Virus record (IMG/VR): IMGVR_UViG_3300037789_000065
Location: 1 to 25,530 of that record
DNA from: a virus
Lineage: Duplodnaviria > Caudoviricetes
Length of the DNA stretch: 25,530 nucleotides
Reading direction: 5' to 3' (one strand)
Shown here: positions 2,755 to 23,980 of the stretch, piece by piece
Layout of the letters: each line of letters begins with the position of its first letter
How positions within the stretch are numbered: position 1 is the first letter of the stretch
The notes under the pieces: model-generated
Told to the model about the DNA's origin: nothing
The model's input: the letters and a program-made list of their open reading frames with translations, nothing else
Databases searched by the model: none
Made by a program: the position numbers and the translations under genes

Positions 2755-2793
2755 CGCAAACGAAAACAGTCTCCCGGGCAATAATAGAAAAAC
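2755..2793 (+). promoter_or_regulatory. Late-promoter motif copy 1 (upstream of gpW)
   Basis: CGCAAA 2755-2760, 15-nt spacer, GGGCAATAATA 2776-2786, then GAAAAAC. Confidence 0.8.
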
Positions 2794-2808
2794 CCGGGAG
2801 AAACTGTC

Positions 2809-3063
2809 TTGTTCACACTCATTTCAACAGCCGATTTGACGGCAATGCTTCAAAAGCTCGCTGCATCGTATGCAAGCGGCCGTCTTGAAATTGAACACAA
2901 CGGCGAACGCATTCGATATGTGAGCAAAAAAGACATGAAAATGGTGGCTGATGAGATCGCAAATGAATTGCGGTCTCGCGGCGCTCTTATTTCTCCGGAA
3001 ACTGGTGAGCAGCCGGAGAAGCCAAATCGGGTTTTGTATCTGTATCAATCAGGGAACCCGTAA
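2809..3063 (+). CDS. Head-tail joining protein, gpW-like
   Basis: 84 aa between terminase and portal; LAASYASGRLEIEHNGERIRY pattern; TTG start after GGGAG 2796-2800. Confidence 0.8.
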   Translation: MFTLISTADLTAMLQKLAASYASGRLEIEHNGERIRYVSKKDMKMVADEIANELRSRGALISPETGEQPEKPNRVLYLYQSGNP

Positions 3064-4554
3064 ATGACTGAACAAAAGCAAAAAAGAACCTGGTTTTCAA
3101 AAATCTGGTCGCCCGCTTCAAAAGTGACACAAATCGGAAACTCGATTCCAGACGCTGGAATCGCCGGATTGACACGTCTTGACTATGACTATGCAGGCGC
3201 AACGGGTGCTGGTCCAAACGCCGCTATGTTGTCGCGCTTAGATGTCGAGCGTGCTCGCAGCCGTCATGAGTTTATGCTCAATGAATATGCTCGCCGCGCA
3301 AAAGCAATTCGCACCCGTTATGTGGTCGGCTCTGGTCTGCGTCCGCACATAAAAGGCGATGCAAAACTTCAAGAGCTTTGGAAAAAGTTTGTCAAGAACT
3401 CTGATCCGTCCGGTTTGCTTGATTTTTATGATCAGCAAAAACTGATTTATAGTGAGGCTCTCGAAGGCGGCGAGTCCATGGTTTTACCGCGTCGTCGTCG
3501 CCCAGAAGATGGGCTCGAAGTGCCGCTGCAGCTGCAAGTCTTGGAGGCTGAATATCTGCCCAGCGGGCGTTCGGTCGATATGCCTGCAAACACAATCGGC
3601 GGCGTTGAGTTGGACAAACTTGAGCGCCCCGTCGCTTATTGGCTCTACACTCGTCACCCTGCCGATGCTGTTCTGACTGGAATCGGCTTGCCGGAATTGA
3701 AGCGGTATGAAGCGGCCCGCGTGATCCGCATTCTTGCGCCTGGTCGTGCCGGTGCGCTTCGTGGCCGTCCAATCATCGCGGCCGTGTTGCCGCGTCTTCG
3801 TGCAGTGGAAAAATACGAACGCGCTGACCTGGCGAAGAAAGAGACTGCCGCCTTGATGGGCGTGGCGGTCAAGATGCCAGCGGCTGATGACAGTGTCGGT
3901 GATGTCCTTGGACTGAGTGCAGAAGAGAAAGAAGAGGGCCAAACCTGGGAGCTGTCAGGCCTCAACCCTGGCGCCATTTTCGGACTTCCTCCTGGCGCTT
4001 CAATTGAAGTCGTCAATCCTCAGGATTCGAGCACTGGCTTCGCAGAGGCATGGCGCACTCGCTACCTCGGCGTCGCTGCTGGCTTGGATGTTCCTTACCA
4101 TCTTTTAACAGGCGATCACTCCGGCATGAATGACCGCTCTTTGCGTTCTGTTATGCTCGATTTCTTCGCGTGTGTGAAAGAAGACAGGAAGCGTTTGTCG
4201 CACCAGCTGAACAGTCGTGTGTGGAAAGAGTTCCTTGACGCTGCTGAACGGGCTGGATGGAAAGCACCGGCTGGAAAGACACGCTCTGATTTTGAGAGCG
4301 TCGAATGGATCGGTGAGCCGCTTCCACACATCCACCCTGTTCAAGAAGTCGCCGCTCAAACCAATGCGATCAGAACCGGCGTCAAAACGCTTGAAGAAGT
4401 TCTGCAAGAAAACGGCAGTGATCTCGAAACATTTATCGAGCAGAAAAAGCGTGAAAACGAAATGCTCGATGAAGCCGAGATCATTCTTGACTGTGACCCT
4501 CGCAAGATGACGAAAGCGGGCGGCTATCAAGACACAAACACCGGATCGGAATAA
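3064..4554 (+). CDS. Portal protein, lambda family
   Basis: RARSR...NEYARRA, VVGSGLRP, PLQLQVLEAEYL, GVELDKLERPVAYW, LTGD..GMN, W..EP..HIHPVQE motifs; position. Confidence 0.95.
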   Translation: MTEQKQKRTWFSKIWSPASKVTQIGNSIPDAGIAGLTRLDYDYAGATGAGPNAAMLSRLDVERARSRHEFMLNEYARRAKAIRTRYVVGSGLRPHIKGDAKLQELWKKFVKNSDPSGLLDFYDQQKLIYSEALEGGESMVLPRRRRPEDGLEVPLQLQVLEAEYLPSGRSVDMPANTIGGVELDKLERPVAYWLYTRHPADAVLTGIGLPELKRYEAARVIRILAPGRAGALRGRPIIAAVLPRLRAVEKYERADLAKKETAALMGVAVKMPAADDSVGDVLGLSAEEKEEGQTWELSGLNPGAIFGLPPGASIEVVNPQDSSTGFAEAWRTRYLGVAAGLDVPYHLLTGDHSGMNDRSLRSVMLDFFACVKEDRKRLSHQLNSRVWKEFLDAAERAGWKAPAGKTRSDFESVEWIGEPLPHIHPVQEVAAQTNAIRTGVKTLEEVLQENGSDLETFIEQKKRENEMLDEAEIILDCDPRKMTKAGGYQDTNTGSE

Positions 4555-4560
4555 TTTTCA

Positions 4561-4589
4561 GTCTGCGGCGCAAATGAAACGCCGCAGAC
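4561..4589 (+). other. Perfect 10-bp GC-rich hairpin after the portal stop, overlapping the upstream box of promoter copy 2
   Basis: GTCTGCGGCG 4561-4570 pairs with CGCCGCAGAC 4580-4589, 9-nt loop; no U-tract follows. Confidence 0.6.
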
Positions 4590-4607
4590 GGGCAACAATA
4601 GAAAAAC
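4569..4607 (+). promoter_or_regulatory. Late-promoter motif copy 2 (upstream of prohead protease)
   Basis: CGCAAA 4569-4574, 15-nt spacer, GGGCAACAATA 4590-4600, then GAAAAAC. Confidence 0.8.
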
Positions 4608-4621
4608 AAGGAATGATGAAC

Positions 4622-5773
4622 ATGGACTATTTTGCAAAACTTCCACAAGTAAGCGTCGGACGCCCGTCCTACATCCGCTCTTTCCGTGGAACTGACATCA
4701 AGGCCGCTCGCGAAGTTCGCAAGCCAGAAATCTCTGCAAAGGCATCTGAGAATGAAGGTGAGGTTTCTGAGCTGTTTATTCTCGATGAGATCGGTGGCTG
4801 GGGTGTTTATGCAGCCGAGGCGATTTATTGGTTGAAGCAATTCGACGGCGAAGGCAAGAAAGTCAAGATCTACATCAACTCTCCCGGCGGCGACGTTTTT
4901 GAGGGAATTGCGATTGCAAACTTCATCGCTGGTATGAAAGCAGAGACAGAAGTTGTTGTCACATCTTTGGCTGCTTCTATCGCGTCAATCATCGCTATCG
5001 CTGCTGACAGCGTGAAGATGAATAAGAACGCACAGATGATGATTCACCGTCCTTGGGCCTTCACTTGGGGCGAGTCTGATGCACTTCGTAAAGCTGCTGA
5101 CCATCTCGACAAAATCGAAGATCAGCTTGTTGGCACATACGCGGATCGCGGAAACGGCAAGAAAAAGCGTGAAGAATATTCTGCTGCTGTTCGTGCTGAA
5201 ACATGGATGACGCCAGAGGAGGCAATCGAAATGGGATTGGCTGATGGACTTGTCGGCGAAGAAATCGAAGTCAAAGCATCTTTGAAAATCGACGCTGAAT
5301 TTTTGAACGAAGCCGGAATCAAAAACGCGCCTTCCGATCTTGTCGAGCCTGCACAGGAAAAAGAATCCGAGCAGGAAAAAGAAGAAGTGAAAGCACAAGA
5401 AGTTGTTGGTGTTTCGCTCGCAAAACCGGAAGATTCAGAAAAAGATCAAAAAAATTCTGTTGCCCACGCAAACAAAGATGAAGACGCGGGCAATAACAAA
5501 ACATACACCGAAACTGAGGTGTCTGAAATCAAAGCAATCTGCGCAAAAGCAAAAATGCAAAACGCAGATGAGCTGATGAAGAACGGCAAAACGGTGGCAG
5601 AAATCAAGAACCTCGCGTTCGACATTCTTGCCGCACAAGACGCCGAAGAAAACATCAGCAGCGCGATTGAAGGCTCTGAGGGGACGGAACAACCCGCAGC
5701 CCCATCGGCTGCACAAATAAACGCAGAAATTCGGGCTCGGCAGTTCGCTGAGTTCCAGCCAAAGTCAAAGTAA
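4622..5773 (+). CDS. Prohead maturation protease, ClpP (S14) type, with acidic linker and scaffold-like C-terminus
   Basis: INSPGGDVFEG, LAASIAS (catalytic Ser), MMIHRPW (His), ETWMTPEEA. ORF-track ATG 4574 lies inside the promoter/hairpin; SD AAGGA 4608-4612 favours ATG 4622 (or 4613/4616). Confidence 0.9.
   Translation: MDYFAKLPQVSVGRPSYIRSFRGTDIKAAREVRKPEISAKASENEGEVSELFILDEIGGWGVYAAEAIYWLKQFDGEGKKVKIYINSPGGDVFEGIAIANFIAGMKAETEVVVTSLAASIASIIAIAADSVKMNKNAQMMIHRPWAFTWGESDALRKAADHLDKIEDQLVGTYADRGNGKKKREEYSAAVRAETWMTPEEAIEMGLADGLVGEEIEVKASLKIDAEFLNEAGIKNAPSDLVEPAQEKESEQEKEEVKAQEVVGVSLAKPEDSEKDQKNSVAHANKDEDAGNNKTYTETEVSEIKAICAKAKMQNADELMKNGKTVAEIKNLAFDILAAQDAEENISSAIEGSEGTEQPAAPSAAQINAEIRARQFAEFQPKSK
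5467..5498 (+). promoter_or_regulatory. Late-promoter motif copy 3, inside the protease gene about 290 nt upstream of the capsid gene
   Basis: CGCAAA 5467-5472, 15-nt spacer, GGGCAATAACA 5488-5498. Confidence 0.7.
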
Positions 5774-5786
5774 CGGAGAAAATGGC

Positions 5787-6851
5787 ATGAACACTATTGT
5801 TGACTTTTTGACGCAGGAAACGCCAGACGGCAATCTTGCTGCTATCCTGGCCGGTGTCGTTGAAAAGACGCCCGCCGTTCCTTCTTTCACAAAAACATTG
5901 GGACTCTTTACCGCTGAAGGCGTTCCTGGAACAACTGTCAAGCTCGATCAGAAAAACTCTGTCATCGGCTTGGTTCAGACTTCCGCGCGCGGCACAGATG
6001 CACCTTCGGCATCCGCGACAGGTCGTGGCCCAACCGTTCACTTCGAAGCGGTTCGTGTTGCTTTGGAGCGTCAGTTCCTTGCAGACGAAATCTTGAACCT
6101 TCGTAAGCTGGGCACAAGCGAGTTCGAAATCTCTGCTATCGAGCAATATTTCGTGAATGAGCTGGCGCCTGTTTCTGGCTCTGTTCGCGCAACTCTCGAA
6201 AACCACCGCCTCGGCGCTCTGCGCGGCTACGTTCTCGACGCAAACAGCGACGTGATCACTGACCTTTACACAAAGTTCGGTATCACTGAGCCCGACACTG
6301 TCTACTTCGACCTGACAACAGCTCCTTCCGCTGGTGTTCCTGATCCAATCCGTCGCAAGCTCGCGGAAAAAGTTGTTCGCCCCATCAAGAAGAGCCTTGG
6401 TGCCATCGGCTCCGGTCAAATCTGGGCGATGTGTGGTTCTCAGTTCTTCGATGAGCTCGTCGGAGCCGAAGAGTGCCGCGAAACATACGCAAACCAAGCT
6501 GCTGCTTCCGCTCTGCGTGAAGGCACAGCGATGACTGGCCGCGTGTTCAAATACGGAGATGTCAACTTCGTCGAAAACTTCGACACAATCGGCGGAACAG
6601 ACCTTGTTGATGCTGACGAAGTTCGCTTCTTCCCAGCCGGTGTTCCTGGCCTCTTCCGTCAGTTCTTCGCACCTCACGACCGTGACGCTTCCATCCCTGG
6701 CAAGGGCATCGGTCAGCCTGAGTATGCGCTGCCAAGCTTCGACCCGAAGGGCCGCTATCGCGAAGTCGAAATCCAGTCCAACCCCGTGACCATCTGCACC
6801 CGTCCGCAGGTGCTCATCGGTGGCCGCGCCGGTGCTGACCCTGCTCCATAA
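5787..6851 (+). CDS. Major capsid protein, lambda gpE family
   Basis: 354 aa; LGLF..EGV....V, TLENHRLGALRG.VLDA, DLYTKFG, FFP.GVPGLFRQFFAP, EIQSNPV.ICTRP motifs; SD GGAG; strong codon bias. Confidence 0.93.
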   Translation: MNTIVDFLTQETPDGNLAAILAGVVEKTPAVPSFTKTLGLFTAEGVPGTTVKLDQKNSVIGLVQTSARGTDAPSASATGRGPTVHFEAVRVALERQFLADEILNLRKLGTSEFEISAIEQYFVNELAPVSGSVRATLENHRLGALRGYVLDANSDVITDLYTKFGITEPDTVYFDLTTAPSAGVPDPIRRKLAEKVVRPIKKSLGAIGSGQIWAMCGSQFFDELVGAEECRETYANQAAASALREGTAMTGRVFKYGDVNFVENFDTIGGTDLVDADEVRFFPAGVPGLFRQFFAPHDRDASIPGKGIGQPEYALPSFDPKGRYREVEIQSNPVTICTRPQVLIGGRAGADPAP

Positions 6852-6877
6852 GGGCAGATGACAGCTGAATGATTTTG

Positions 6878-6908
6878 GCCCCGCCCTCTCATAGGGGCGG
6901 GGCTTTTT
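6878..6908 (+). terminator. Rho-independent terminator after the capsid gene
   Basis: GCCCCGCCC 6878-6886 pairs with GGGCGGGGC 6895-6903, followed by TTTTT. Confidence 0.9.
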
Positions 6909-6921
6909 CGTAGGAGAGAAC

Positions 6922-7506
6922 ATGAACATCGGATCTGAAATACTGGAAGAACTCGGAAAGCCCGCTCAATATGAGCGGCCGTCTTCTGGTGTGTCGACAA
7001 TCACCGCAATCATTCGAGACAGAGGCGCCAGATCGCGTGTCGGTCGCGGTGTTGTCTTGACATCTGATGCTGTTGCGACTGTTTCAGATTCTGTTGTGTT
7101 CGAAAGAAATGCCACATTGACCTTTGAGGGCACGGTTTATCGTGTCGAAAGCAAAGAGCAAGGTTCGCCAGGATCAAATGTCTGGTCTCTTTCTCGTTTG
7201 AGTGGTGATCGGATTGAAAGCACAGACTCGTTCTTCGGTGATGATATCGTCGACGCGTTCGGAGATGATGTGATTGTTTATAACAGTCAATCCATTCCTG
7301 CTCATGTCGTGAGAACGGCGACCCGAACTGAGATGAAAAAATCCGGTGCGATTGTGAATGTCGTGAAGACGGTTGCAACAATCCGAATTTCAGACGCACC
7401 CGACATTAAGCCAAAAGATCAAATCGAACTTGATGGCCGCACATACACTGTTCGAGAAACAAATCGGACAGGCTTTGGGCTTGTAGATCTGGAGCTCGAC
7501 AAATGA
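6922..7506 (+). CDS. Head-tail joining (stopper, gpFII-like) protein, apparently two tandem domains
   Basis: Position after capsid; each half ends in a 'TLTFEGTVYRV'/'QIELDGRTYTV' beta-strand motif typical of stopper proteins; SD AGGAG. Confidence 0.65.
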   Translation: MNIGSEILEELGKPAQYERPSSGVSTITAIIRDRGARSRVGRGVVLTSDAVATVSDSVVFERNATLTFEGTVYRVESKEQGSPGSNVWSLSRLSGDRIESTDSFFGDDIVDAFGDDVIVYNSQSIPAHVVRTATRTEMKKSGAIVNVVKTVATIRISDAPDIKPKDQIELDGRTYTVRETNRTGFGLVDLELDK

Positions 7507-8030
7507 GTGGAAGAAACAGGCGCGCTGCAGACAAATTCGCAACCTTTGAAAGAGACTTTGACAAAGTGTCAAAGAAGTCATTTGCAAAAACATCGAATAA
7601 ATACGGCAAAAAGATCGTCAAGGACAGACAAAAACAGCTCGGAAATGTCGATGAGCGCAGAAAAGCGGGTGTCTGGCACAAAGTCACACGAAACGGCGGC
7701 CTTGTCATCATGGACTTGGCACCTCTCGCCGCTGCCCAGGAATTTGGGAAAATCATCGGCCCAACCGGCGATGTCGGCTATTTGCGTGTTCCCCTCGGAA
7801 AGGAAAACAAAGGCCCGCAAAAAGATGACAGCGGAAACTTTGTTGTGAGAACACACAGCGGCACGATGTTGCTGATGAACAAAGACGGTGAACCGATTGC
7901 GACACTCGAAAAGCGTGTCGTTATCAAAAGAAACAACACGAACGGAAGATTTGCGACGGCCATTGATAAGAACCTCCGCAAATATCAAGACGAACTTATT
8001 CAAGAAGTGCTTAGGGAATGGCAACCATGA
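7503..8030 (+). CDS. Putative tail-completion/neck protein (gpZ position)
   Basis: Basic 175 aa, ATGA-coupled to both neighbours; QEFG.IIGP...YLRVPL motif like tail-completion proteins; function from position. Confidence 0.55.
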   Translation: MSGRNRRAADKFATFERDFDKVSKKSFAKTSNKYGKKIVKDRQKQLGNVDERRKAGVWHKVTRNGGLVIMDLAPLAAAQEFGKIIGPTGDVGYLRVPLGKENKGPQKDDSGNFVVRTHSGTMLLMNKDGEPIATLEKRVVIKRNNTNGRFATAIDKNLRKYQDELIQEVLREWQP

Positions 8031-8461
8031 AACGTAAAGAAATCACACAAGAAATTCTGAACTGCTTAAACTCAATTCCGAATCTTCGGGTTGAGTATGA
8101 AAGAAGGCAACCAGAAGATGAAGACGAACTGAGAGAAAATGGACCGCTTGCAATTTTGCTTCGCGGCGAGTGTGAGCGAGTTGAGGTTGACAATGCGCCA
8201 ACATCTCTTTGGTCCATTCGGTGGGAATACAAGCCTGTGATCGCTTTTTTCATCGCTGATGCTGATCAGGACGAGCAAAGAGAGGCGCTTGAAGAAATCG
8301 AGGACGCTTTCGTCACGGCGCTTGCAGAAAATCCAAGACTGACAGAAGACGATCTTTTGGCAATGAGTTCTGAGCCTGATTGTAAAGTCGTTTTTCGTTA
8401 TCCGGACGAGGCGCCGATTGGTGGCATGGAAATATTCTTAAATCTGACGTATGACAGATAA
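8027..8461 (+). CDS. Putative tail terminator protein (gpU position)
   Basis: Acidic ~144 aa just before the tail tube, begins MKRKEITQEI and ends LTY; ATG 8027 overlaps the upstream TGA and follows AGGGA (ORF track starts at 8018). Confidence 0.6.
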   Translation: MKRKEITQEILNCLNSIPNLRVEYERRQPEDEDELRENGPLAILLRGECERVEVDNAPTSLWSIRWEYKPVIAFFIADADQDEQREALEEIEDAFVTALAENPRLTEDDLLAMSSEPDCKVVFRYPDEAPIGGMEIFLNLTYDR

Positions 8462-8476
8462 AAAAATAACTGCTGA

Positions 8477-8515
8477 CGCAAACAAAAACGAATGCGTGGG
8501 CAATAATAGATAAAC
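8477..8515 (+). promoter_or_regulatory. Late-promoter motif copy 4 (upstream of tail tube)
   Basis: CGCAAA 8477-8482, 15-nt spacer, GGGCAATAATA 8498-8508, then GATAAAC. Confidence 0.8.
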
Positions 8516-8540
8516 ACAGCTTTGACATGAGGAAAACGCA

Positions 8541-9281
8541 ATGAGCAAACTGCCTTCAAAAGACAACATTTCCATTCCAGCCGGTGAAGTTTTCTGGCAG
8601 AAAGATGGCGATGCATTCCCTGTGTCCCTCGGACACACAAGCAAATTCGGCTGGACGCCGAGCGTCGAGTTTGAGCCCGTCGAGGTTTCAACAACTGGCG
8701 TAAAAACGAAAGTCGCAGAACTTGAAAAAGAAGTTTCTGTCGACATCTCTTTGACGCTTCAAGAAATGCGTGCTGACATCATCGCGATGGCGACAGCTGG
8801 TGAAGAGACTGTATACACACAGGCCTCTGTAACCGCTGAAACTGCTGCCCTGGCCGGTGCAACCGCTGGCGCTTTGATGAAGCTCGGGTATCTCGATGTG
8901 ACAAACGTTTCTGTTGAAATCGACGGTGTCGCCGCAACAGAAAACACAGATTACACAGTTCTGGCGGCTGCCGGTCGTGTCATCGTTCGCACTCCTGGTG
9001 ACTATGTTGTGACATTCGACGCACCCGCGATCACTGCTGGCAAATCTGCCATCAAGCTGCTCCAGAAAACTGGTCTCGAAGGTATTTTCACTGTTGTTCA
9101 GAAGAACAAACAGGGCAAGCGTTACATGCTCGAAGACTTCCGCGCCGTGCTGCGTCCTTCTTCTGAATTGATGTTGAACTCTGACGGCTCTGCAATTCTC
9201 AATGTCGAGCTCTCCGGCGCTGGTGTTTACAACGAAGCAAATCCCGCTGCACCTTGGGGCACACTGACAGAACTGTCTTAA
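8541..9281 (+). CDS. Major tail (tube) protein
   Basis: 246 aa, beta-rich (GEVFW, LG....F, ISLTLQEM, DYTV...AGR, LRPSSEL.L), has its own promoter and terminator, high-expression codon bias, precedes chaperone and tape measure. Confidence 0.8.
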   Translation: MSKLPSKDNISIPAGEVFWQKDGDAFPVSLGHTSKFGWTPSVEFEPVEVSTTGVKTKVAELEKEVSVDISLTLQEMRADIIAMATAGEETVYTQASVTAETAALAGATAGALMKLGYLDVTNVSVEIDGVAATENTDYTVLAAAGRVIVRTPGDYVVTFDAPAITAGKSAIKLLQKTGLEGIFTVVQKNKQGKRYMLEDFRAVLRPSSELMLNSDGSAILNVELSGAGVYNEANPAAPWGTLTELS

Positions 9282-9315
9282 TTTTTACTCTCCTTTTGTT
9301 TCGACAGTTTTTGTG

Positions 9316-9349
9316 AGGGCGGCCAAAGTGGCCGCCCTTTTTTCTTTTT
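9316..9349 (+). terminator. Rho-independent terminator after the tail tube gene
   Basis: AGGGCGGCCA 9316-9325 pairs with TGGCCGCCCT 9329-9338, followed by TTTTTCTTTTT. Confidence 0.9.
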
Positions 9350-9352
9350 CGG

Positions 9353-9391
9353 CGCAAACAAAGCGGGGTGTTCGGGCAATAATACATAAAC
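9353..9391 (+). promoter_or_regulatory. Late-promoter motif copy 5 (upstream of tail chaperone/tape measure operon)
   Basis: CGCAAA 9353-9358, 15-nt spacer, GGGCAATAATA 9374-9384, then CATAAAC; directly after the terminator. Confidence 0.8.
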
Positions 9392-9403
9392 ATAGGAGAA
9401 AAC

Positions 9404-9799
9404 ATGTCTGACTTTATCACATCACTTGATGATCTGGCCCCAGTTGTCGACCAGGTCTCAATCGGAGAAAAACAACTTATCGTCAACCCTTTGGATTTGG
9501 CACAAATTGGCGCGCTTATGTATAAGCACAAAATCTTGCGTGATCTTTTCGACGGATCCGAAGAGCGTGAAGTTGATATTTTTGATGCCGTGATGGACGG
9601 TGGAAAGGCGGTCATTTGTGACCTGGTCGATTTTGCCACCGGAATCACTGGGCTTGGCGAGCGACTGACCGGAATCCAGCAAGGCAATGTGATCTTTTCG
9701 TGCTTGTCGATGACGCTTCCCGAAGAAAAAGGGGAGATGAACGATTTTTTGGCACAACTGACAGCTCTCGCGACACGGGCGAAAATGATTCAGGAATAA
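9404..9799 (+). CDS. Tail assembly chaperone (gpG-like)
   Basis: 131 aa between tail tube and tape measure; SD AGGAG; contains a slippery site near its 3' end. Confidence 0.8.
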   Translation: MSDFITSLDDLAPVVDQVSIGEKQLIVNPLDLAQIGALMYKHKILRDLFDGSEEREVDIFDAVMDGGKAVICDLVDFATGITGLGERLTGIQQGNVIFSCLSMTLPEEKGEMNDFLAQLTALATRAKMIQE

Positions 9800-9999
9800 G
9801 CCCCTGGGCGCTGATGGCTGTCGAACTGGAAATGAAGGGTGCTGCAAAAGACGCGATGAAAATGACACCGCGTCAGGCACTCGCAAGATACCGGGCAATG
9901 AATGAAATTGTTCGGAACGACACAAAGAGAAACGCAATCGCTGTTCGTGCAGCACAGGCAGACGATAAAGAATTTGGGAAATGGATGAATGGGCGTTAG
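9404..9999 (+). CDS. Tail assembly chaperone gpGT-like, -1 frameshift product (~198 aa)
   Basis: In-frame T TTT TTG at 9745-9751; the -1 frame (ORF-track 9700..9999) is open to TAG 9997-9999, overlapping the tape-measure start. Confidence 0.75.
9745..9751 (+). other. Programmed -1 ribosomal frameshift heptamer TTTTTTG
   Basis: Codons GAT TTT TTG give X XXY YYZ = T TTT TTG, the same heptamer used by phage P2 E/E'. Confidence 0.75.
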
Positions 10000-12931
10000 A
10001 AACGGTGGATTGAGATTTAACATGGGGGTCGACACAAAGTCGGCTCTCGATTCTCTGCGTGATCTTGAAAACCACCTGCGCGGGATTGGTGACCGTGCAG
10101 ACCAGTCCGAGCAGTCTCTCAATGAAATGTCAGAAGCCGCCCAGGAGGCCGCAAAAGTCGCCGAGGACGCAGCGAAGGAGCAGCAGAAAGCGGCTCAGAA
10201 GCAGCAGCAGGCCGAAGAAGAACTTGCTGATGTTATGGCGCGCAACCAGGGCGTCCGTGGGCGTGCTGCGCAGGAAGAGAGGCAGCAGGCGCGTGAGCGT
10301 GTTCGCTTGCTTCGTGAAGAGGCTCGTGAGCGTGCCAAAATCGCACAAGAAGCAGATCGTCTTGCGCGTCAAGCAAGACGGCAGCAACAGACAAACGATC
10401 CGCAGTTCCAGGCCCGCTCCGCTTTCCGTGAATTGAGTGTCAGCCGCGACCAGGATCTCAACCGTCGCATTGCTCACATCGAAGAATTGAAGCGGCGCGC
10501 ATTGCTTGCTGAGGGACTGACGCAGCAAGAGCGGATCCGTATCGAAGCGTCCGCAAACCGTCAAATTTCGCGTTTGCGCGACCAGATGAACATGGACAAT
10601 TTGAACGGCTCAAATGAAGCGTTCAGAAGACTTGGCATTCGTCGCGCGCAAGATATTCGCAACGAGATCAACCAGGTCCGTGAGCGTGAGCGTCAGGCCT
10701 TGGCTGCGTCGAACTTGACCGCGTCTGAGCGGCTACGGATTGAGCGCCGCACAGCCGCTGAAATTCGTCGTTTGAATCGTCAGCTGGCAGATGCCACAGC
10801 ATCCACTTTCCGCCAGCGTATGCAAGCGGCGGCGAACTCTGTGCGCACGGCCGGACAGTCTATGACGAATATTGGTCAGCAAGCGACGATGAAAGTGTCG
10901 GCGCCGGTTATCGGTGGCTTCGGTGCATCCGTTCGTCAAGCTGCAATGTTTGAGCAACGCATGGGCGGTGTTCGCGCAATCATGCAGGATTTGAGTGATG
11001 AAGATTTTCAGAAACTCATTGACATGGCAAAAGAATTTGGTCGCACAACTCAGTTTTCTGCAAACGAAGTCGCACAGGGCATTGAGATGCTGGCTTCAAA
11101 CGGTTTGAGCGCACAGCAGATTCTTGGCGGTGCATTGAAAGGTGCGATCACAACGACCGCAGCGACGGGTGGTGAGCTCTCAGGCGCCGCTGATTTGATG
11201 ACTGACGTGATGATGCAGTTTGGTGTCAGTGCAGAAGAGATGACACGCGTTGCTGACCAGCTGACCGGCCTGCGCAGCTCTTCAAAATTAACTTTTGACG
11301 ATATGCGACTTGCCTTTGGTATGGGCGGTGGTGTTGCTGGTATGTCGGGTCTTTCTTTTGAAGACTACACGGCTGGCCTGGCTGCGACAGCTTCTATGTT
11401 CACATCTGGCTCGGACGCTGGCACGTCGTTCAAAACATTTATGCTTCGTATGTCGAGCCCGGATTCTGCAAAAGCCCGCGCTGAGGCTGGATTTAATGCG
11501 TTCAGCGTGTCTGATGAAGTCGCGGCCGCAATGGCAGAAGCTGATGCACAAATTCAGCGCGCAAAAGATTTGGTCGAAAAAACAGAAGAAGAATATGACG
11601 CGGCTGCGAAGAGAAGCCGTGACAAGGGCGGTGAGGCAAATAAGACTGCAAAAAACAAAGCAAAAGACCGTTATGACGCTGCAAAAGAAGCGCTTGAAGA
11701 ACTTGTGGCTACACAAGAAAGACTTATTGAAGACGCGCGCCTAAACTCTTCGGACGAAGACGGTGTTTTGAAGTCTTTGCCAGAAATTGCAGATGAACTT
11801 CGCCGCATAACGGCAGGAAAAACACAAGAACAAAAGACTGCAATGCTCGGGAAGATCTTCGGGCAGGACGCTATCCGGACCGCCCTTTCGCTTGCTGAAA
11901 TGGGAAGTGAAGGCGTAATTGCCGCGCGTGAAAAAGTCGGAAAAGGTGACTCAGCCGCCGCAGCTGAAATTCGGATGGAAGGCTTGATGGGTGAGTTGAG
12001 GAAGCTTGCATCTGCGATGGAAGGCTTCGCAATTGCGCTCGCCGAATCCGGTCTCATTCAAGCTATCACTGACATTGTCGTGAAGCTTACAGAGTTTGTT
12101 TCAAGCCTTGCAAAAGCCTCTCCTTTTGCGATGAAGATGATCACATGGGTTGGACTTTTGGTTGCCGCCCTCGGCCCGCTCCTCCTCATCATCGGTCAAA
12201 TCGCAATCGGTTTCTCGCTACTCATGACCGCGATCTCTCTGATTAGCGCTCCAATCTTGCTTGTTGTCGGTATCATCGCAGCAATTGCAGCGGCTATCGC
12301 TTTGCTCTGGGTTTTCAAAGATGACATCGTTAAGATTCTGACTGGAATTGGTGTGTTTTTCACAATAAAAATGAAAGAGCTTTTCACGTCAGCATTCGAC
12401 TGGCTTACAGAAACTAGCTCAAGAGTATGGAGCTCAATCGTCGACGCTATCAAGCAAGCGTTCGCAAGTGCCATCATTTGGATTTCTGAAAAAATCGCGG
12501 CGCTTATCGACATGATTCCAACGAAGGAAGACTTCGGAAAAGCGTGGGATGGTTCAACGATTGGAACAATTGTGAACACTGTAGCGGGATATGCAAACGG
12601 CGTTGTGAACTTGCAAGGTCCTGGCACTTCGACAAGCGATTCAATCCCTGCCTGGCTGTCAAAAGGCGAAACTGTTCACACTGCAAAAGCCACGAAATTC
12701 TGGGGCACTGGATTTATGAACGCGGTTCAAAATATGAACCCGGCCGCTGCGATGATGCCTGTCGCTTCGACTGGCGGCGGGGGTCGTGACCTTCACCCGA
12801 TCACATTGAACATTGGCGGCGGTGCAGTCGATGGTGTCTATGGAACGCCGGACGCTGTTCGTCAACTTCAAAATCATCAATCACAAAAATCTGCTCTTAG
12901 AGTCGTCAAAAAATCGAGAAACTTCAAATGA
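9989..12931 (+). CDS. Tail tape measure protein (TP901-type core)
   Basis: 980 aa, Ala/Gln/Glu-rich helical; FEQRMGGVRA, TTQFSANEVAQG, GSDAGTSFK, KIFGQDA core motifs; hydrophobic segment; C-terminal GPGTSTSDSIPAWLSKGE motif. Confidence 0.95.
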   Translation: MGVRNGGLRFNMGVDTKSALDSLRDLENHLRGIGDRADQSEQSLNEMSEAAQEAAKVAEDAAKEQQKAAQKQQQAEEELADVMARNQGVRGRAAQEERQQARERVRLLREEARERAKIAQEADRLARQARRQQQTNDPQFQARSAFRELSVSRDQDLNRRIAHIEELKRRALLAEGLTQQERIRIEASANRQISRLRDQMNMDNLNGSNEAFRRLGIRRAQDIRNEINQVRERERQALAASNLTASERLRIERRTAAEIRRLNRQLADATASTFRQRMQAAANSVRTAGQSMTNIGQQATMKVSAPVIGGFGASVRQAAMFEQRMGGVRAIMQDLSDEDFQKLIDMAKEFGRTTQFSANEVAQGIEMLASNGLSAQQILGGALKGAITTTAATGGELSGAADLMTDVMMQFGVSAEEMTRVADQLTGLRSSSKLTFDDMRLAFGMGGGVAGMSGLSFEDYTAGLAATASMFTSGSDAGTSFKTFMLRMSSPDSAKARAEAGFNAFSVSDEVAAAMAEADAQIQRAKDLVEKTEEEYDAAAKRSRDKGGEANKTAKNKAKDRYDAAKEALEELVATQERLIEDARLNSSDEDGVLKSLPEIADELRRITAGKTQEQKTAMLGKIFGQDAIRTALSLAEMGSEGVIAAREKVGKGDSAAAAEIRMEGLMGELRKLASAMEGFAIALAESGLIQAITDIVVKLTEFVSSLAKASPFAMKMITWVGLLVAALGPLLLIIGQIAIGFSLLMTAISLISAPILLVVGIIAAIAAAIALLWVFKDDIVKILTGIGVFFTIKMKELFTSAFDWLTETSSRVWSSIVDAIKQAFASAIIWISEKIAALIDMIPTKEDFGKAWDGSTIGTIVNTVAGYANGVVNLQGPGTSTSDSIPAWLSKGETVHTAKATKFWGTGFMNAVQNMNPAAAMMPVASTGGGGRDLHPITLNIGGGAVDGVYGTPDAVRQLQNHQSQKSALRVVKKSRNFK

Positions 12932-14319
12932 CAAAAATGCCATGGAAACTCTTTAAGAATGAATCAGAAATCGTGTTCCCTGAGGGCTCGCGTCGGTTTG
13001 TCAATGTCAATGTGACACAAATCGGAAGCGGCGGCGGTGTTGAGCGTGACATCTATGGGAATGCTGTCTATATGGGCAACCCCGCGTTTCGTCTTCACAC
13101 AGTCGATATCAGCTGCACCGGACAAACGGCGGCGCCCATTTCACAGATTTGGGTCGGTGATCAAGTTGTGCTTTGGTCTCCTGATGAAATTTCTGTCGCG
13201 GGTCCGTCAGCAAATTTGGATCACGACGCTGTCCCAGGCACTTGCTACGGCGTTGACGCGAACGATGTGATCGTCGGATTTGCTGATCCAGTCGATAAAG
13301 CGGTGACAATTTCTGGTGCGGTGTCTATTCGATACCGCCCGATTTTGAACTGCGTCGTTGTGAATAAGAACGCGAACGGACAACAAGGCAAGGCAAACGC
13401 GGGATGGTCTTTGACGCTTGAAGAGATGGCGGGCGGTGAAGAGATTGTTGGATCGATTGATTATATTCAAGCGACTGGCGGTCAGATTGTGGACTACACA
13501 GACGACGACGGCGTAGCCTGGCGTGCTCACATTTTCACAGCGTCGGGTGAGTTTGTTGTCACGACTGGCGGTGAGGCTGATGTTGAGGGCATTGGTGGCG
13601 GCGGCGGTGGTGGTGATGGATATAGCGGGACAGGAGGCGGTGTTGCTGGCGGAGGCGGTGGCGCTGGACAATATTACAGAAATCAGAAGCAAAAAATAGA
13701 AGCCGGAACATGGCCAATAGCCATCGGTGCTGGCGGTGTTTTTAGAACAAACGGAACTGAAACGTCATTTTTGGGCATCACCTGCCTCGGCGGCGGGCGA
13801 GGCGCAAGGGCAGGAACAATACCGTCTGGCTACGGTGGGGGCGGTTTTTCATTTTATCAATTCACTTATTCTCCGGGTGGCACATTTCCCTGCTCGACGC
13901 CTTGGCACAGATCAGGAAATCGTGGCGGACTTGGCAGAGTATCAAGCAACACCTTGTTAGCGGGCGGTGGCGGCGGAGTCTGTGGCTGCGGAGGCGATGG
14001 ATTCGCAGGTTGGCCAAACGATGTTTATCGTTACGACACAAGCCTCATCCCGGGGATTCCATACAGAGCAGCGGGCGACGGCATCTACACCGACATCGCG
14101 GGAGTAGCCGAATACATCGGCGGCGGCGGCGGAGGAGGCAGCAGCTGGACACAAGAGTTGCAGGGTGGCCTGGGTGGCGGCGGAAATGGCGCAATCGGAA
14201 CTGGCAGGGGACACGACGCAACGAGCTACGGCAGCGGCGGCGGTGGAAGCTGGAATAATGCTTCAGCAGGCACCGGCTCAGACGGTCGCGTCGTCATTCG
14301 CTATAAGAGGAAATCATAA
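12928..14319 (+). CDS. Tail-tip protein: ~165-aa N-terminal distal-tail-like domain fused to a glycine-rich domain
   Basis: Follows tape measure; N-domain ends WSLTLEE; C-domain runs ATGG...HIFTASGEF...GGGGGGG...GSGGGG...GSDGRVVIRY, the typical frame of phage glycine-rich domains. Confidence 0.7.
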   Translation: MTKMPWKLFKNESEIVFPEGSRRFVNVNVTQIGSGGGVERDIYGNAVYMGNPAFRLHTVDISCTGQTAAPISQIWVGDQVVLWSPDEISVAGPSANLDHDAVPGTCYGVDANDVIVGFADPVDKAVTISGAVSIRYRPILNCVVVNKNANGQQGKANAGWSLTLEEMAGGEEIVGSIDYIQATGGQIVDYTDDDGVAWRAHIFTASGEFVVTTGGEADVEGIGGGGGGGDGYSGTGGGVAGGGGGAGQYYRNQKQKIEAGTWPIAIGAGGVFRTNGTETSFLGITCLGGGRGARAGTIPSGYGGGGFSFYQFTYSPGGTFPCSTPWHRSGNRGGLGRVSSNTLLAGGGGGVCGCGGDGFAGWPNDVYRYDTSLIPGIPYRAAGDGIYTDIAGVAEYIGGGGGGGSSWTQELQGGLGGGGNGAIGTGRGHDATSYGSGGGGSWNNASAGTGSDGRVVIRYKRKS

Positions 14320-14837
14320 TGAAACAGCGCGTGCATCAACTTGAAAACAATGTCATCGTAAAAAGCTGGGTTTTTCTCGCCGGAATCGATATCGACGATC
14401 CCGCCGTGGCAAAATACAAACTGCCAGGCTTCGACTACATTCTAGAAACAGAAGCCACTCGTCGCGGCTCACCTGGTTATGTCTGGCACCCCGAACGCGG
14501 CTACTTCACAGAGCCCGCGCCTTTCCCATCATGGTCTCTCGACGAAAACAACGAATGGCAAGCGCCAACCCCAAAACCTGCAACCGGCGACTGGGACTGG
14601 AACGAAGACACCCAAACGTGGGATCCGATCATCCAATTCATTGACGTCAATTCAGCAACAGAAACAGAACTCCAAGCTCTCAACGGCGTAGGCCCAAGCA
14701 CTGCAGCGGCAATTATTTTGGAACGAAACGAGAACGGCCTATTTACTTCTTTGTTAAACTTGTCTGTCCGCGTTGATGGCGTAAGTGCCGCTATGGCTGA
14801 CGGATGGACAAATGCTTGCATCGGAGAAACTGCTTAA
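14319..14837 (+). CDS. Trp/Pro-rich tail-associated protein with a C-terminal ComEA-like helix-hairpin-helix domain
   Basis: PFPSWSLDENNEWQAPTPKP...WDWNEDTQTW, then IDVNSATETELQALNGVGPSTAAAII..R..NG.FTS (HhH); TAATG coupling on both sides. Confidence 0.8.
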   Translation: MKQRVHQLENNVIVKSWVFLAGIDIDDPAVAKYKLPGFDYILETEATRRGSPGYVWHPERGYFTEPAPFPSWSLDENNEWQAPTPKPATGDWDWNEDTQTWDPIIQFIDVNSATETELQALNGVGPSTAAAIILERNENGLFTSLLNLSVRVDGVSAAMADGWTNACIGETA

Positions 14838-16558
14838 TGTCTACACCATACATCGCAATTGTTGATGATGAGGAAATTTTTGATCTTCAAACTCACACAC
14901 GCCGCGACCTCTTTCCAACTGATCTCACAATGACTCAAAATGAAGGCGAGTTGTGCTCTGTTGACATGACTGTTGTCAATCCGCAGACACAGCTTTCAAG
15001 CTTCGATGGTCGCCGCGTCATTCTCTCGACAAAAGGCGCCGTTCTTTTCGACGGCGTCATCCAAGGCGTGCCTTACGGTTTGATCGGAAACCAAATGACG
15101 ATCCAGGCGTTCGGAACAACACCGGATCCGGAGACACTTGAAACACAAGTCGCGCTTCTCAAAGAAAGCTTGAAAGTGGCGCCATATTATGACCCGCTTT
15201 TCGTGCCGGATGGAGAAGATGACAACGCAATCGAAATTCTGACCGGCCGTTCGTCTGTTATTTGTCACAGCAGAATCAAGGGCGCGCCCGTTTTGTGTGA
15301 TGCTTTGTCTGGATCCACAACGCTTGAAATCGTGCCGATTCATCAGTCTCTTTCTATCAGCGCTGAAAAGTCAGTCGCTCAAAATTATGGCGTGACTGTC
15401 AGTGCGAAATGGAAACAAAATGTTCGTCAAACACTGGGCGACAACAACGCATTTTTTCAGTTTTCGACACTGACAAAAGACGCGATTATTGAGAACTTTC
15501 CAAAGCTCGGCTCGACAATCGGCTCTGATTTTCGTGTGACTCGCTCTGTTGCAAAAGCCGTCACAAACGGATTTGCAGTGAGCGGAAACGAAACTTTCAC
15601 ACTCAAAAAGCAAGCGACAACGGCGACACTTGATCCGGCTTGGGAAGAAGCAAAAGTCGAAGAAATCGAGTTTAAAAAGACACGACTGGATCTCGATATT
15701 GCAGTTGAGTATCGCTTCGATTTGGAACGCACAGAAACTCTGTCTGTGCTCGCTGAGACTGATATGCAAGCCGGTGTTGTTGTTCAAACTGACGAAATCG
15801 AAGAGCTGAACTTGCGCTCGCTTTCGACACCTGAAACCGCAGATGAATGGGCGTCTGGCACAGACTATCTGATCGGAGACCTGGTCACATATGGAAACTA
15901 CGTCTATACAGCACGGGTTGATCACACATCCGGCGATGAATTTTCTCCGGCAGACTGGACGCAATCTGGTGAGACTTCTTATTTGTCGAGCCAGTCCCTC
16001 TCTTCGTTCTTCAAGTCTGCGCGCGGGCAACAAGCTATCGAGCATATCGAGCAACGCATTCGTTCTCGCGCTCGCATTGCAAGCCGCTGTGTGTATATCG
16101 ACTTTGAAGCAAAAATGCCTCAGAACCCGCACGATGTGACACATGACTGTATGGTGTCTATCACGGCGCCACAGCTCCCAGGCGGCGTCGCTGTCGGCCG
16201 CCTCATCAATTATACTTTGTCTTGGACCGACGGTCGCTGGTCTCTCTCTGGTCAAATCGCTTGTGCGGCTGGATCTGGCGGTGCTGATGACTTCGCGCTC
16301 GGAACGGCAACGGTCAGCACATACACACCGAGCGGCCGGATGTCTGTGAAAGTTGAGAACACAGGCGACGAGCAGCAAGAAATTCTTGAAGGCGCCCAAC
16401 AATTCGACGCTGAGGGTGTCCCGTCCATTTCTGATGTCGAAGTCCCAGAAACAAAAATAACTTTCACAACGACGCCGACTTCTGTGAAATCTTTGGAACA
16501 AGAGGCAGAAGTTCCTATCTCAGGATCAATCGGGCTTCCAAATCAGGTAAATCTATGA
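14837..16558 (+). CDS. Tail hub/tip protein with a small carbohydrate-binding (CBM5/12-like) insert
   Basis: Position; N-terminal ...VLFDGVI hub-like strands; EWASGTDYLIGDLVTYGNYVYTARVDHTS...W motif; ATG 14837 overlaps the upstream TAA (ORF track starts at 14804). Confidence 0.65.
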   Translation: MSTPYIAIVDDEEIFDLQTHTRRDLFPTDLTMTQNEGELCSVDMTVVNPQTQLSSFDGRRVILSTKGAVLFDGVIQGVPYGLIGNQMTIQAFGTTPDPETLETQVALLKESLKVAPYYDPLFVPDGEDDNAIEILTGRSSVICHSRIKGAPVLCDALSGSTTLEIVPIHQSLSISAEKSVAQNYGVTVSAKWKQNVRQTLGDNNAFFQFSTLTKDAIIENFPKLGSTIGSDFRVTRSVAKAVTNGFAVSGNETFTLKKQATTATLDPAWEEAKVEEIEFKKTRLDLDIAVEYRFDLERTETLSVLAETDMQAGVVVQTDEIEELNLRSLSTPETADEWASGTDYLIGDLVTYGNYVYTARVDHTSGDEFSPADWTQSGETSYLSSQSLSSFFKSARGQQAIEHIEQRIRSRARIASRCVYIDFEAKMPQNPHDVTHDCMVSITAPQLPGGVAVGRLINYTLSWTDGRWSLSGQIACAAGSGGADDFALGTATVSTYTPSGRMSVKVENTGDEQQEILEGAQQFDAEGVPSISDVEVPETKITFTTTPTSVKSLEQEAEVPISGSIGLPNQVNL

Positions 16559-19311: not shown

Positions 19312-19313
19312 AG

Positions 19314-19348
19314 AAAAAAAATTGGCCTCATAATTTGGGGCCTTTTTT
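19314..19348 (+). terminator. Rho-independent terminator, probably bidirectional, ending the tail operon
   Basis: A-run 19314-19321, GGCCTCA 19324-19330 pairs with TGGGGCC 19336-19342 (one G-U), T-run 19343-19348. Confidence 0.75.
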
Positions 19349-19393
19349 ATTTTTTCCTATTTGCTTTTTAGATAAAGCATAAGGGAAGAAGAT

Positions 19394-20251
19394 TTGCTTG
19401 GTGAAATTTTAGAGTTCAAGAAACCACAGAAATTACTTGTGCTTTCTGACACACATTTGTCGCAAGAAAGCGGCCAAAAGCAGCACGATCTCGTCGCTGC
19501 TATTTCTGATGAAATATGGGATGAGCAACCCGATCATGTTGCTCACTTGGGGGATTTGGGGGATTTCCCAGGTCTTCTTGAATATCGTGGCTCAACACTT
19601 GCGGGCGGCGACGGTCGAGACGAAAACCTTGACCTGGTCGGCGACTTTGAAGCGTTTAAATCTGGCCTGGCCGCACTCAAAAGACGCTTCAATTTCGAAA
19701 AAGAAAGAAACAGAAAAAACCGCCGCAATGACAGAACACCAAACATTCAATGGCACATGATGTTCGGAAATCACGAAAACAAAATCTTTGAGCTGGCCGC
19801 AAAATACAAAGTTTTGAGACGCCTCCCCTATCTCCCAGAATTTAATCTATCGCAAATGTGTCTCGATGAAGGTTGGACACCATATCCATTTTTGGAACCT
19901 CTGACAATTAATGGATTGACGATGCAGCACTATTTCCAAGGTCTCAACAAAAAAGTCGCGCTCGGTATGGCTTCGGTCCGTCGTGAAAACGGCGGGTCTT
20001 CTCTTTTTGGGCACACGCATCGTCAAGAGGTCATCAACTGGAATGATCCACATATGCGTTCACGTCACATCATCAATACGGGCTGCACAATCCATCCAGA
20101 TTCTCTTGTGAAAATGAAAGCGCGGCACGCACGCTCCGGCATCCTCATCATCGAAAATCTTGAAGACGGAATGTTCACGCACCGCTGGATCCCATCAGAA
20201 ATCCTGCTCCGGAAATATTACGAGAAAAACGGGGGTCTTCTTGCGGCATGA
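19394..20251 (+). CDS. Calcineurin-like metallophosphoesterase
   Basis: All five motifs present: SDTH, HLGDLGD, GNHE, QH, GHTH; TTG start after AAGGGAAG. Confidence 0.9.
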   Translation: MLGEILEFKKPQKLLVLSDTHLSQESGQKQHDLVAAISDEIWDEQPDHVAHLGDLGDFPGLLEYRGSTLAGGDGRDENLDLVGDFEAFKSGLAALKRRFNFEKERNRKNRRNDRTPNIQWHMMFGNHENKIFELAAKYKVLRRLPYLPEFNLSQMCLDEGWTPYPFLEPLTINGLTMQHYFQGLNKKVALGMASVRRENGGSSLFGHTHRQEVINWNDPHMRSRHIINTGCTIHPDSLVKMKARHARSGILIIENLEDGMFTHRWIPSEILLRKYYEKNGGLLAA

Positions 20252-20763
20252 GTAAATTGACGAAGAGGGAAAAAGACAGACTGATTTCAGAAAATTATAA
20301 TTTTATTTGCTCCATCGCGACAACTGAATGGAAAAAAAATAAATGGCTTGATAGAGATGACTTTATTCAAGAAGCAAGTATGTGTGCTTTCACCGAGCTT
20401 GAAAAATACGATCCGGATGTCGCAGGTTTCGGTGCGTTTATAAAAAGAAGAATTGAGCTCCATCTTGGTCATTTTGTCAGATCAAATTTGCGATCAGAAA
20501 AAAGAGTCGAAACTGCTGCTGAAATTTATCAAATGATAAGCGAAAACAGAGAGCAGTGCATTGAAGAAAAGATTGATGACAAAGTATCACTCGATCTTTT
20601 TGATGATTTTCCAACCGTCAAAAAGAGACTTATGGGACACACTATTGTCGATATGGCAAAGGTTGAGAAAGTGGCTCCCTCAACAGTCTATCGAAGGATG
20701 CAGAAAGAGAAAGGCGAAATGCTTAAAACTCAGCGCAAACAAAAGAGTGATGGCGGGCAATAA
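20248..20763 (+). CDS. Phage-encoded sigma-70-family RNA polymerase sigma factor (regions 2 and 4 only)
   Basis: Region 2-like KDRLISENYNFICSIA...DRDDFIQEA...EKYDPD..GFGAFIKRRI....GHFVR; region 4.2-like HTH GHTIVDMAKVEKVAPSTVYRR; 171 aa. Confidence 0.8.
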   Translation: MSKLTKREKDRLISENYNFICSIATTEWKKNKWLDRDDFIQEASMCAFTELEKYDPDVAGFGAFIKRRIELHLGHFVRSNLRSEKRVETAAEIYQMISENREQCIEEKIDDKVSLDLFDDFPTVKKRLMGHTIVDMAKVEKVAPSTVYRRMQKEKGEMLKTQRKQKSDGGQ

Positions 20764-20772
20764 TAGAGAAAC
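20734..20772 (+). promoter_or_regulatory. Late-promoter motif copy 6 (3' end of the sigma gene, upstream of the lysis cassette)
   Basis: CGCAAA 20734-20739, 15-nt spacer, GGGCAATAATA 20755-20765 (contains the sigma TAA), then GAGAAAC. Confidence 0.8.
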
Positions 20773-20788
20773 GCGAGGGTTTCTCTAT
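20763..20788 (+). promoter_or_regulatory. Hairpin sequestering the endolysin translation start
   Basis: ATAGAGAAAC 20763-20772 pairs with GTTTCTCTAT 20779-20788; loop GCGAGG holds the SD and the 3' arm includes the AT of ATG 20787. Confidence 0.7.
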
Positions 20789-23783: not shown

Positions 23784-23980
23784 TTGACGCGGCACGCATA
23801 GAAAGCGCGCTTGACTACATAGCGCAGTGCATCGCAGCGGGAGACGAAAGTCTCCTGCCCATATTCGAGCGTCTCGACAAAGAGCTCGAAGAAAGACAGA
23901 AAGAAAATCCAGCACTTGCAAAAGCCTTGGCCCGAGTTAATCGGGCGAAGGCAGGCTCAGCCGCTCAACCGGCAATGTGA
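23780..23980 (+). CDS. Small helical hypothetical protein convergent with the integrase
   Basis: GTG 23780 after AAGGA 23765-23769; RIESALDYIA...LLPIFERLDKELEER amphipathic helices (ORF track starts at 23750). Confidence 0.65.
   Translation: MIDAARIESALDYIAQCIAAGDESLLPIFERLDKELEERQKENPALAKALARVNRAKAGSAAQPAM

Follow-up and report, generated by a model that had tools for sequence, protein, structure and literature searches.

Six two-box repeats among the late genes of a lambda-type phage: candidate promoters for a phage-encoded sigma factor

The locus described here raises the question of how the late genes of a phage with a lambda-type head are switched on when six copies of a two-box motif are distributed among them and a sigma-like gene stands next to the lysis genes. 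The DNA analyzed (hereafter the window) is the whole stretch of 25,530 nt, positions 1 to 25,530 of the IMG/VR virus record IMGVR_UViG_3300037789_000065 (Duplodnaviria; Caudoviricetes), and represents the late half of a tailed phage; one contig continues for ~14.4 kb upstream of it, and no sequence variants were found among the contigs aligned to the window. An initial annotation, made from the sequence alone, had interpreted the six copies as promoters of a self-contained late regulon, read by the product of the sigma-like gene (20248..20763, + strand; 171 amino acids, hereafter P0001). Two points had to be considered separately: whether the repeats are promoters, and which protein reads them.

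Two-box sites in the window and in two relatives

The six copies, all exact and on the + strand, start at 2755, 4569, 5467, 8477, 9353 and 20734, and 15 nt separate the two boxes in every one of them, just as initially annotated. No seventh copy was found in the window at up to two mismatches, and 100 dinucleotide shuffles of the window contained a mean of 0.03 copies (maximum 1). The downstream box alone (GGGCAAYAAYA) occurred six times in the window, solely at the motif sites, and was absent from the - strand. A weight-matrix scan of the window scored the six copies at 33.5-38.6 bits and the next-best site at 11.6 bits.

Copy 1 (2755..2786, +) lies straight after the terL stop codon and 5' of the gpW-type adaptor and portal genes; its proposed boxes are a -35 GCAAAC (2756-2761) and a -10 AATAAT (2780-2785), with a predicted start at ~2792. 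Copy 2 (4569..4600, +; predicted start ~4606) stands 5' of a ClpP-type protease gene, the reading frame of which spans 4574-5773 with the true start likely at 4622, and copy 3 (5467..5498, +) falls within this gene, in a variable linker 289 nt 5' of the capsid start (5787), and likely feeds the capsid gene. Copy 4 (8477..8508, +; predicted start ~8514) precedes the tail tube gene (8541), and copy 5 (9353..9384, +; predicted start ~9390) precedes the chaperone and tape measure genes (9404), directly after a terminator-like hairpin (9315..9339, +) located 3' of the tail tube gene, as in the initial annotation. Copy 6 (20734..20765, +; predicted start ~20771) is found 5' of the lysis genes and overlaps the last codons of the sigma gene, the stop codon of which is part of the downstream box. 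A family search identified the gpW adaptor, portal, ClpP protease, gpE capsid, tail tube, tape measure and endolysin, and the chaperone only below the Pfam cut-off; the matches to the gpA, gpW, portal and gpE families bear out the lambda-type head, and the downstream genes were as first assigned except at 5467, which had been placed upstream of the capsid gene and lies inside the protease gene.

One of the P0001 homologues came from Ruixingdingia sedimenti LG-4, a prophage of which is syntenic with the window from terS to the lysis genes (identity of 63% for the portal, 58% for the capsid and 34-37% for the sigma factor). The window pattern had no match around the Ruixingdingia sigma gene at three mismatches; the prophage carries a version of its own, CGCAAC-N15/16-GTGAATAACGGGG, in six copies at the same six places as the window: after terL (on another contig), before the protease gene, inside it (with a 16-nt gap, at the same aligned codons as copy 3), before the tail tube gene, before the chaperone gene and at the end of the sigma gene. 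The -10 region was identical over 13 nt in all six sites. In the 4.7-Mb Ruixingdingia genome, the CGCAAC-N15 two-box pattern gave five exact matches, all in the prophage, and one match with one mismatch elsewhere, and the 11-mer GTGAATAACGG of the -10 region occurred six times, all at the six prophage sites; these counts refer to the Ruixingdingia genome only and not to the host of the window phage. The expectation that the motif would be confined to phage late genes in a host genome thus held for this relative.

A second relative, G402, was found through a capsid alignment of 17 clusters. It is a 44.6-kb IMG/VR phage (capsid identity of 51%) with a sigma gene in the same place, and six copies of a third version, GCAAGAAA-N13-TCTATAT, were located before terS, gpW, the protease, tail tube and chaperone genes, and at the end of the sigma gene, 5' of the holin gene; a counterpart of copy 3 was absent. 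Five motif junctions (those of copies 1, 2, 4, 5 and 6) are therefore common to the window phage, the Ruixingdingia prophage and G402, and the anticipated co-occurrence of motif and sigma gene was observed in both relatives, each with six copies of its own version and a late-side sigma gene (26-37% identity among the three phages).

All 18 sites in the three phages could be written as GCAA(A/C/G)N, 17-18 nt and WATAWY, with A at 11 and 12 nt after the start of the -10 hexamer in 17 and 16 of the 18 sites, respectively. The GCAA box, the spacer of 17-18 nt and the AA pair at the predicted start were common to the three versions, and the flanks of the -10 differed. The predicted start was placed at this AA pair, an arrangement consistent with a -35/-10 promoter, but reading the -10 boxes TA-first, in a register shifted downstream by two bases, is also possible, and the start may then differ. 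Three features make late promoters a very probable role for the six repeats: their positions persist in two relatives although the sequence has changed, the spacer has a fixed length, and in the one host genome scanned the motif is restricted to the prophage. The proposed elements are a -35 GCAAAY, 18 nt, a -10 AAYAAY and a predicted start ~7 nt further on.

Two other roles were weighed against this evidence. The repeats might act as RNA-level signals (processing, antitermination or translational control) on long late transcripts, as hairpins overlap several copies and all of them are on the coding strand near gene starts; the folds, however, vary by site with no common structure, one copy comes straight after a terminator, and the fixed free spacer of 17-18 nt with AA at a fixed distance fits polymerase geometry, which makes such a role improbable. 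Operator- or stoperator-type repressor sites silencing late genes in the lysogen would be expected at gene boundaries of a temperate phage, and the window phage is likely temperate, because it encodes a tyrosine integrase (23937..25361, -; DUF6538 and Phage_integrase). The sites are nevertheless on one strand, consist of two boxes with a free spacer, occur at late genes only and share no palindrome when aligned, and repressor sites appear the most improbable of the explanations considered.

Some sites showed peculiarities. At the terS copy of G402 the second A of the AA pair coincides with the first base of the terS ATG, which lacks a ribosome site on its 5' side (G402:C1:20055-20092, L080:4055-4092), and the terS message is likely leaderless, with the ATG at the predicted start. 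An off-spacing copy in G402 (L081:4201-4230) overlaps the start of the phosphoesterase gene; its upstream box is perfect and its -10 poor, and it may provide weak feedback on the sigma operon. The gene that follows copy 6 varies, being an M15 peptidase endolysin in the window (20787-21548), an amidase (L061:657-1157) or directly the holin (L081:5678-5980); the promoter position thus outlasts the downstream cargo gene.

Candidate readers of the sites

P0001 matched the Pfam family Sigma70_r2 (PF04542) with 27 bits against a cut-off of 24 (E 4e-6) and also matched PHROG sigma families; its architecture comprises region 2 and a predicted C-terminal helix-turn-helix, with no region 3. A full library search yielded 13 homologues with 27-40% identity, 12 of which had a region 2 domain match and six a Sigma70_r4 or r4_2 match (two above the cut-off), and two homologues, P0016 (47.9) and P0045 (53.8), passed the TIGR02937 cut-off. 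The profile of the homologues matched the solved sigma factors SigA, RpoS and SigE, and covered both regions 2 and 4 of Mycobacterium tuberculosis SigE and of WhiG. The structure model of P0001 contained a region 2 bundle, a disordered linker and a helix-turn-helix at residues 133-168; its top Foldseek matches were all sigma factors, none of them at E <= 0.001 because the linker was poorly modelled. A recognition helix of the form S/T-T-V/I/A-x-R was conserved in the 13 homologues shown, as is the GCAA box in the motif.

In a complex model, region 2 of P0001 and residues 250-330 of Rhodobacter beta-prime scored 0.66 against 0.00 for the best control, with contacts at residues 37-49, runs agreeing in at least 88% of contacts and a partner predicted local distance difference test (pLDDT) of at least 79; of the pairs used for calibration, 116 of 157 solved and 2 of 215 mismatched ones scored at this mark, and since the beta-prime coiled coil with sigma is a textbook pair, the model may simply reproduce known structures. 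P0001 scored far under the curated cut-offs for all the named sigma groups compared (RpoH, FliA/WhiG, SigB/F/G and the named extracytoplasmic function groups). The product of 20248-20763, which has homologues in both relatives, is a sigma70-family protein, in agreement with the initial annotation, and no Q family match was obtained among the 27 window proteins scanned.

In all three phages this late-side sigma gene is situated between the phosphoesterase gene, to which it is coupled (window 19394..20251, +; metallophosphoesterase), and the lysis genes, and its end carries a motif copy. A terminator precedes the phosphoesterase-sigma operon in both the window and the Ruixingdingia prophage, and the operon has no matching motif copy, so that it can be made first, as expected of an activator gene. 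The sites of the window would be read by host RNA polymerase with the phage's own 171-aa late-side sigma factor, a reading to which we assign a probability of about two in three. Of the annotated proposal, the late-promoter part gained support from conserved positions, fixed spacing and prophage confinement; its choice of the reader was left unproven by a second sigma factor in the relatives.

Several observations weigh against this choice. P0001 had no region 4 family match of its own, only a weak match to HTH_7, and its TIGR02937 score (35.2) was below the cut-off (42.9). Both relatives encode a second, RpoH/SigB-like sigma factor on the opposite strand, on the early side by the primase gene (P0019 and P0044; L060:11-700 (-) and L079:14423-15163 (-)), which leaves the pairing of the late-side sigma factor with the motif unproven. 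The -10 of G402 is also present, with GCAAGA absent, upstream of early genes and of the phosphoesterase gene, and equals the sigma70 -10 of Sinorhizobium meliloti, CTATAT (PMC2573895). The absence of a P0001-type sigma gene from four more distant gpE-capsid records, set against its presence in both relatives, counts for the late-side sigma factor, but three of these records are incomplete. DNA context was available for three phages only, too few for statistics on sigma/motif co-divergence, and the hairpin test described in the following section was passed at 2 of 16 sites (2/5 in the window and 0/11 in the relatives).

The early-side sigma factor could itself read the late promoters, leaving another job to the late-side protein. 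P0044 matched sigma families more strongly than P0001, both relatives encode such a protein, and the window phage may carry one too in the ~14.4 kb upstream. On the other hand, P0019 and P0044 align over 44 residues only (30% identity) while the GCAA box is constant, and it is the late-side protein whose recognition helix is conserved; in each of the three phages its gene occupies the Q slot and ends in a motif copy. We consider a reading by the early-side sigma factor unlikely.

Slightly less probable still is that host sigma70 reads the -10 and that a phage protein, perhaps the sigma-like one by means of its helix-turn-helix or an activator of the Mu C or P1 Lpa type, binds GCAA in place of the -35. 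The G402 -10 is host-like and common to early genes and the phosphoesterase promoter region, the phosphoesterase leader of the Ruixingdingia prophage has a similar box, GGGAATAACC, without CGCAAC, and all three -10 boxes are readable TA-first, many alphaproteobacterial promoters lacking a -7T (PMC7703639). A housekeeping promoter would, however, be far less strict than the Ruixingdingia -10, with its 13 identical nt at six sites and an 11-mer found nowhere else in 4.7 Mb; region 2 of the phage protein is complete and was modelled onto the core binding site, and the lack of a common palindrome speaks against an activator site.

The leader of the phosphoesterase gene in both relatives combines a late-like -10 with a different, TTWCC-like upstream box. 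All three phages have such a box 5' of the phosphoesterase-sigma pair (window 19352-19385; L040:17235-17270; L081:4140-4175), and both relatives have one 5' of the early-side sigma gene (L079 about 15165-15200 (-) and L060 about 700-731 (-)), mostly 18-19 nt before a -10-like box. The leader -10 could represent a middle promoter class, weak autoregulation or a -10 read by host sigma70; the short motifs of phiEco32 and 7-11 offer a parallel for weak autoregulation (PMC4331800).

Among annotated phage records, nothing matched P0001, the tail tube or the gene at 14837; P0045 had a single weak, partial match, and the best capsid match reached 34% identity. A P0001-type sigma profile run over 401 genomes of the relative's family gave one match, the Ruixingdingia relative itself; locus searches with single proteins (sigma, terminase and capsid) and two metagenome scans yielded nothing. 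Judging from matching lengths of the longest contigs, capsid and sigma genes may also share contigs in three more phages (46,842, 44,499 and 22,623 nt). Exact motif scans of the viral collection returned 34 loci for the window motif and eight for the Ruixingdingia motif, each with a single copy; these 42 loci, none with a sigma homologue and two with distant head-gene matches, were taken as chance. In a spaced-dyad count the motif ranked first in the three phages, and GC-rich outgroup loci had 4-7 copies of CGGCG-type dyads, so that this count is no clean negative control.

Hairpins, terminators and neighboring genes

An inverted repeat at gpW (2766..2807, +) has its 5' arm (2766-2778) in the spacer and its 3' arm (2793-2807) over the GGGAG ribosome site; the computed cost of opening the gpW start was 22.0 kcal/mol in long RNA and 3.4 in the predicted late RNA (100 shuffles, 7.8 +- 2.2). 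At the endolysin gene, a 10-bp hairpin (20763..20788, +; arms 20763-20772 and 20779-20788) covers the start region, the opening cost being 14.6 kcal/mol in long RNA against 4.3 in the predicted late RNA (shuffles, 8.1 +- 2.2), which keeps just 2 nt of the 5' arm. In these models, both hairpins would form only in read-through RNA and block its translation. The remaining three window sites gave no such effect. The hairpin sites of the relatives were within the range of their own shuffles (best p 0.07-0.08; Ruixingdingia lysin p 0.30; the run for the G402 terS hairpin used a wrong start codon), and the lysis-site hairpins of both relatives, of different sequence, were not above their shuffles. 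A 10-bp hairpin with no U tail at the protease site (4561-4589) overlaps copy 2, over the -35 box and spacer; U-tail-less hairpins over the same elements were also seen in G402 (L080 about 8990-9025, protease site, and 12720-12750, tail-tube site), and might shield the upstream transcript at its 3' end.

If the late-side sigma factor is the reader, transcription of the phosphoesterase-sigma pair would come first, driven by a different promoter. RNA reading through into the endolysin gene, or from the terminase genes into gpW, would be poorly translated, with the start regions buried in hairpins; the sigma factor would then fire the six promoters, and the resulting RNAs, beginning within the hairpin sequences, would have no 5' arm. 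With separate promoters and terminators, capsid and tail-tube RNA would become more abundant than that of minor proteins. The regulon was not wholly self-contained as had been claimed, since motif copies are missing before terS and terL in the window, before genes 6922-8461 and before the phosphoesterase-sigma pair. Besides the hairpin preceding copy 5, intrinsic-terminator-like hairpins were located 3' of the capsid gene (6877..6904, +), with no motif copy after it, and at 19324..19342 (+), where the hairpin ends the tail block and divides it from the phosphoesterase-sigma pair.

The gene order of the window is terS, gpA-type terL, gpW-type adaptor, lambda portal, ClpP protease, gpE capsid, tail genes, phosphoesterase, sigma-like gene, endolysin, holin, spanin and integrase, and an alphaproteobacterial host is likely, judging from the one named relative. 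No gpD-type decoration gene was present between protease and capsid (window 5773-5787), unlike in lambda. In the protease tail, an in-frame ATG after the internal motif copy is conserved (window 5577; L040:2891), with no clear ribosome site, and may possibly give a short nested scaffold-like product; an in-frame GTG at 5519, neither conserved nor preceded by a spaced ribosome site, gave no support for a nested scaffold start. The chaperone frames overlap (window 9404-9799 and 9700-9999) with a T-rich run near 9745, as they also do in the Ruixingdingia prophage, which we take to be the usual tail chaperone frameshift. A gene of the tail region (window 14319-14837) encodes a C-terminal helix-hairpin-helix (ComEA-like) domain. 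The Ruixingdingia gpW gene is split over two contig ends (L040:1-78; L060:10100-10206) with foreign DNA at both, presumably the end of an IS66-type insertion sequence, and the prophage may therefore be defective; ten gpA-type terminase matches in the same genome (G001) reveal many prophages or remnants.

Comparison with known systems

No literature on this phage family or motif was found, subscription papers and supplements being outside the search. In the literature found, every phage sigma factor tested together with late promoters of its own belongs to a lytic phage, and the known mechanism, a phage sigma factor with late promoters, was not found in print in a temperate lambda-type setting. 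If the reading by the late-side sigma factor is true, a sigma-read late scheme extends to a lambda-type temperate family in which the late-regulator slot holds a sigma factor instead of an antiterminator. Three related sigma factors with a common -35 and three different -10 regions constitute a ready test of region 2 specificity, and candidate switchable promoters for Rhodobacterales; since one family member resides as a prophage in a named strain whose genome has been sequenced, the pairing of sigma factor and motif is directly testable. A broader picture is more speculative: a temperate alphaproteobacterial family with lambda-type heads in which a sigma factor has replaced Q and a two-sigma cascade might run from the early sigma to the phosphoesterase-sigma pair and on to six promoters doubling as blocking arms, each member having its own -10 and the constant GCAA, as mutually orthogonal pairs.

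Mu C, in a temperate phage, serves late promoters as an activator with host sigma70. The window phage resembles Mu C and P1 Lpa systems in being a likely temperate phage with several probable late promoters; P1 Lpa serves 11 late promoters with host sigma70 plus the activator, at a site that is an inverted repeat (PMC10695390). That inverted-repeat site has no counterpart in the aligned sites of the window and its relatives, and a host-like -10 was present in G402 only.

The closest likeness is to the late sigma factor of Salmonella phage 7-11, SaPh711_gp47, the promoters of which are GTAAtg-(16)-aCTA (PMC8948821); experiments on this phage had demonstrated a set of bipartite late promoters dependent on a phage sigma factor, and the initial annotation had overstated the novelty of the scheme. 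Both cases have a small phage sigma factor and several fixed-spacer bipartite promoters, probable ones in the window, before late genes, with positions kept and sequences differing between relatives (PMC8948821), and here several two-box fixed-spacer sites and a phage sigma factor were present in the three phages with DNA context. The gp47 protein has regions 2 and 4, and P0001 has region 2 and a predicted helix-turn-helix (PMC8948821). Phage 7-11 is, moreover, a lytic phiEco32-like phage of a gammaproteobacterial host with one sigma factor, whereas the window phage has an integrase, a lambda-type head, another consensus and a likely alphaproteobacterial host, and both of its relatives have a second sigma factor (PMC8948821).

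In phiEco32, gp36 drives middle and late genes from tAATGTAtA promoters, and here too a phage sigma factor would act through an AAT-rich -10-type core (PMC4331800; PMC8948821); gp36 is described as reading one-box promoters, lacking region 4 and needing gp79, unlike the two boxes and predicted helix-turn-helix of the present case (PMC4331800; PMC8948821). The SPO1 gp28/gp34 and T4 gp55 cascades likewise order expression by phage sigma factors, with two sigma factors per genome as in both relatives, but belong to large lytic phages with other virion genes, the likeness lying in the shared sigma70 family (PMC9429907). At T4 gene e, soc, 49 and I-TevI, upstream transcripts bury the start region and a late promoter within the 5' arm frees it (PMC3014915); the same design is here predicted only, strong at the gpW and endolysin genes of the window and weaker in the relatives (PMC3014915).

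The gene order of lambda, ninI phosphatase, Q, S, R and Rz (PMC10695390), provides the last comparison. Like ninI-Q-pR'-S-R-Rz, the window has a phosphatase-family gene, a likely late regulator, a promoter and the lysis genes, together with gpA, gpW, portal and gpE head genes (PMC10695390). Lambda makes one antiterminated late transcript, whereas the window has a sigma-family gene in the Q slot and six sites (PMC10695390); its late control is not the lambda Q scheme.

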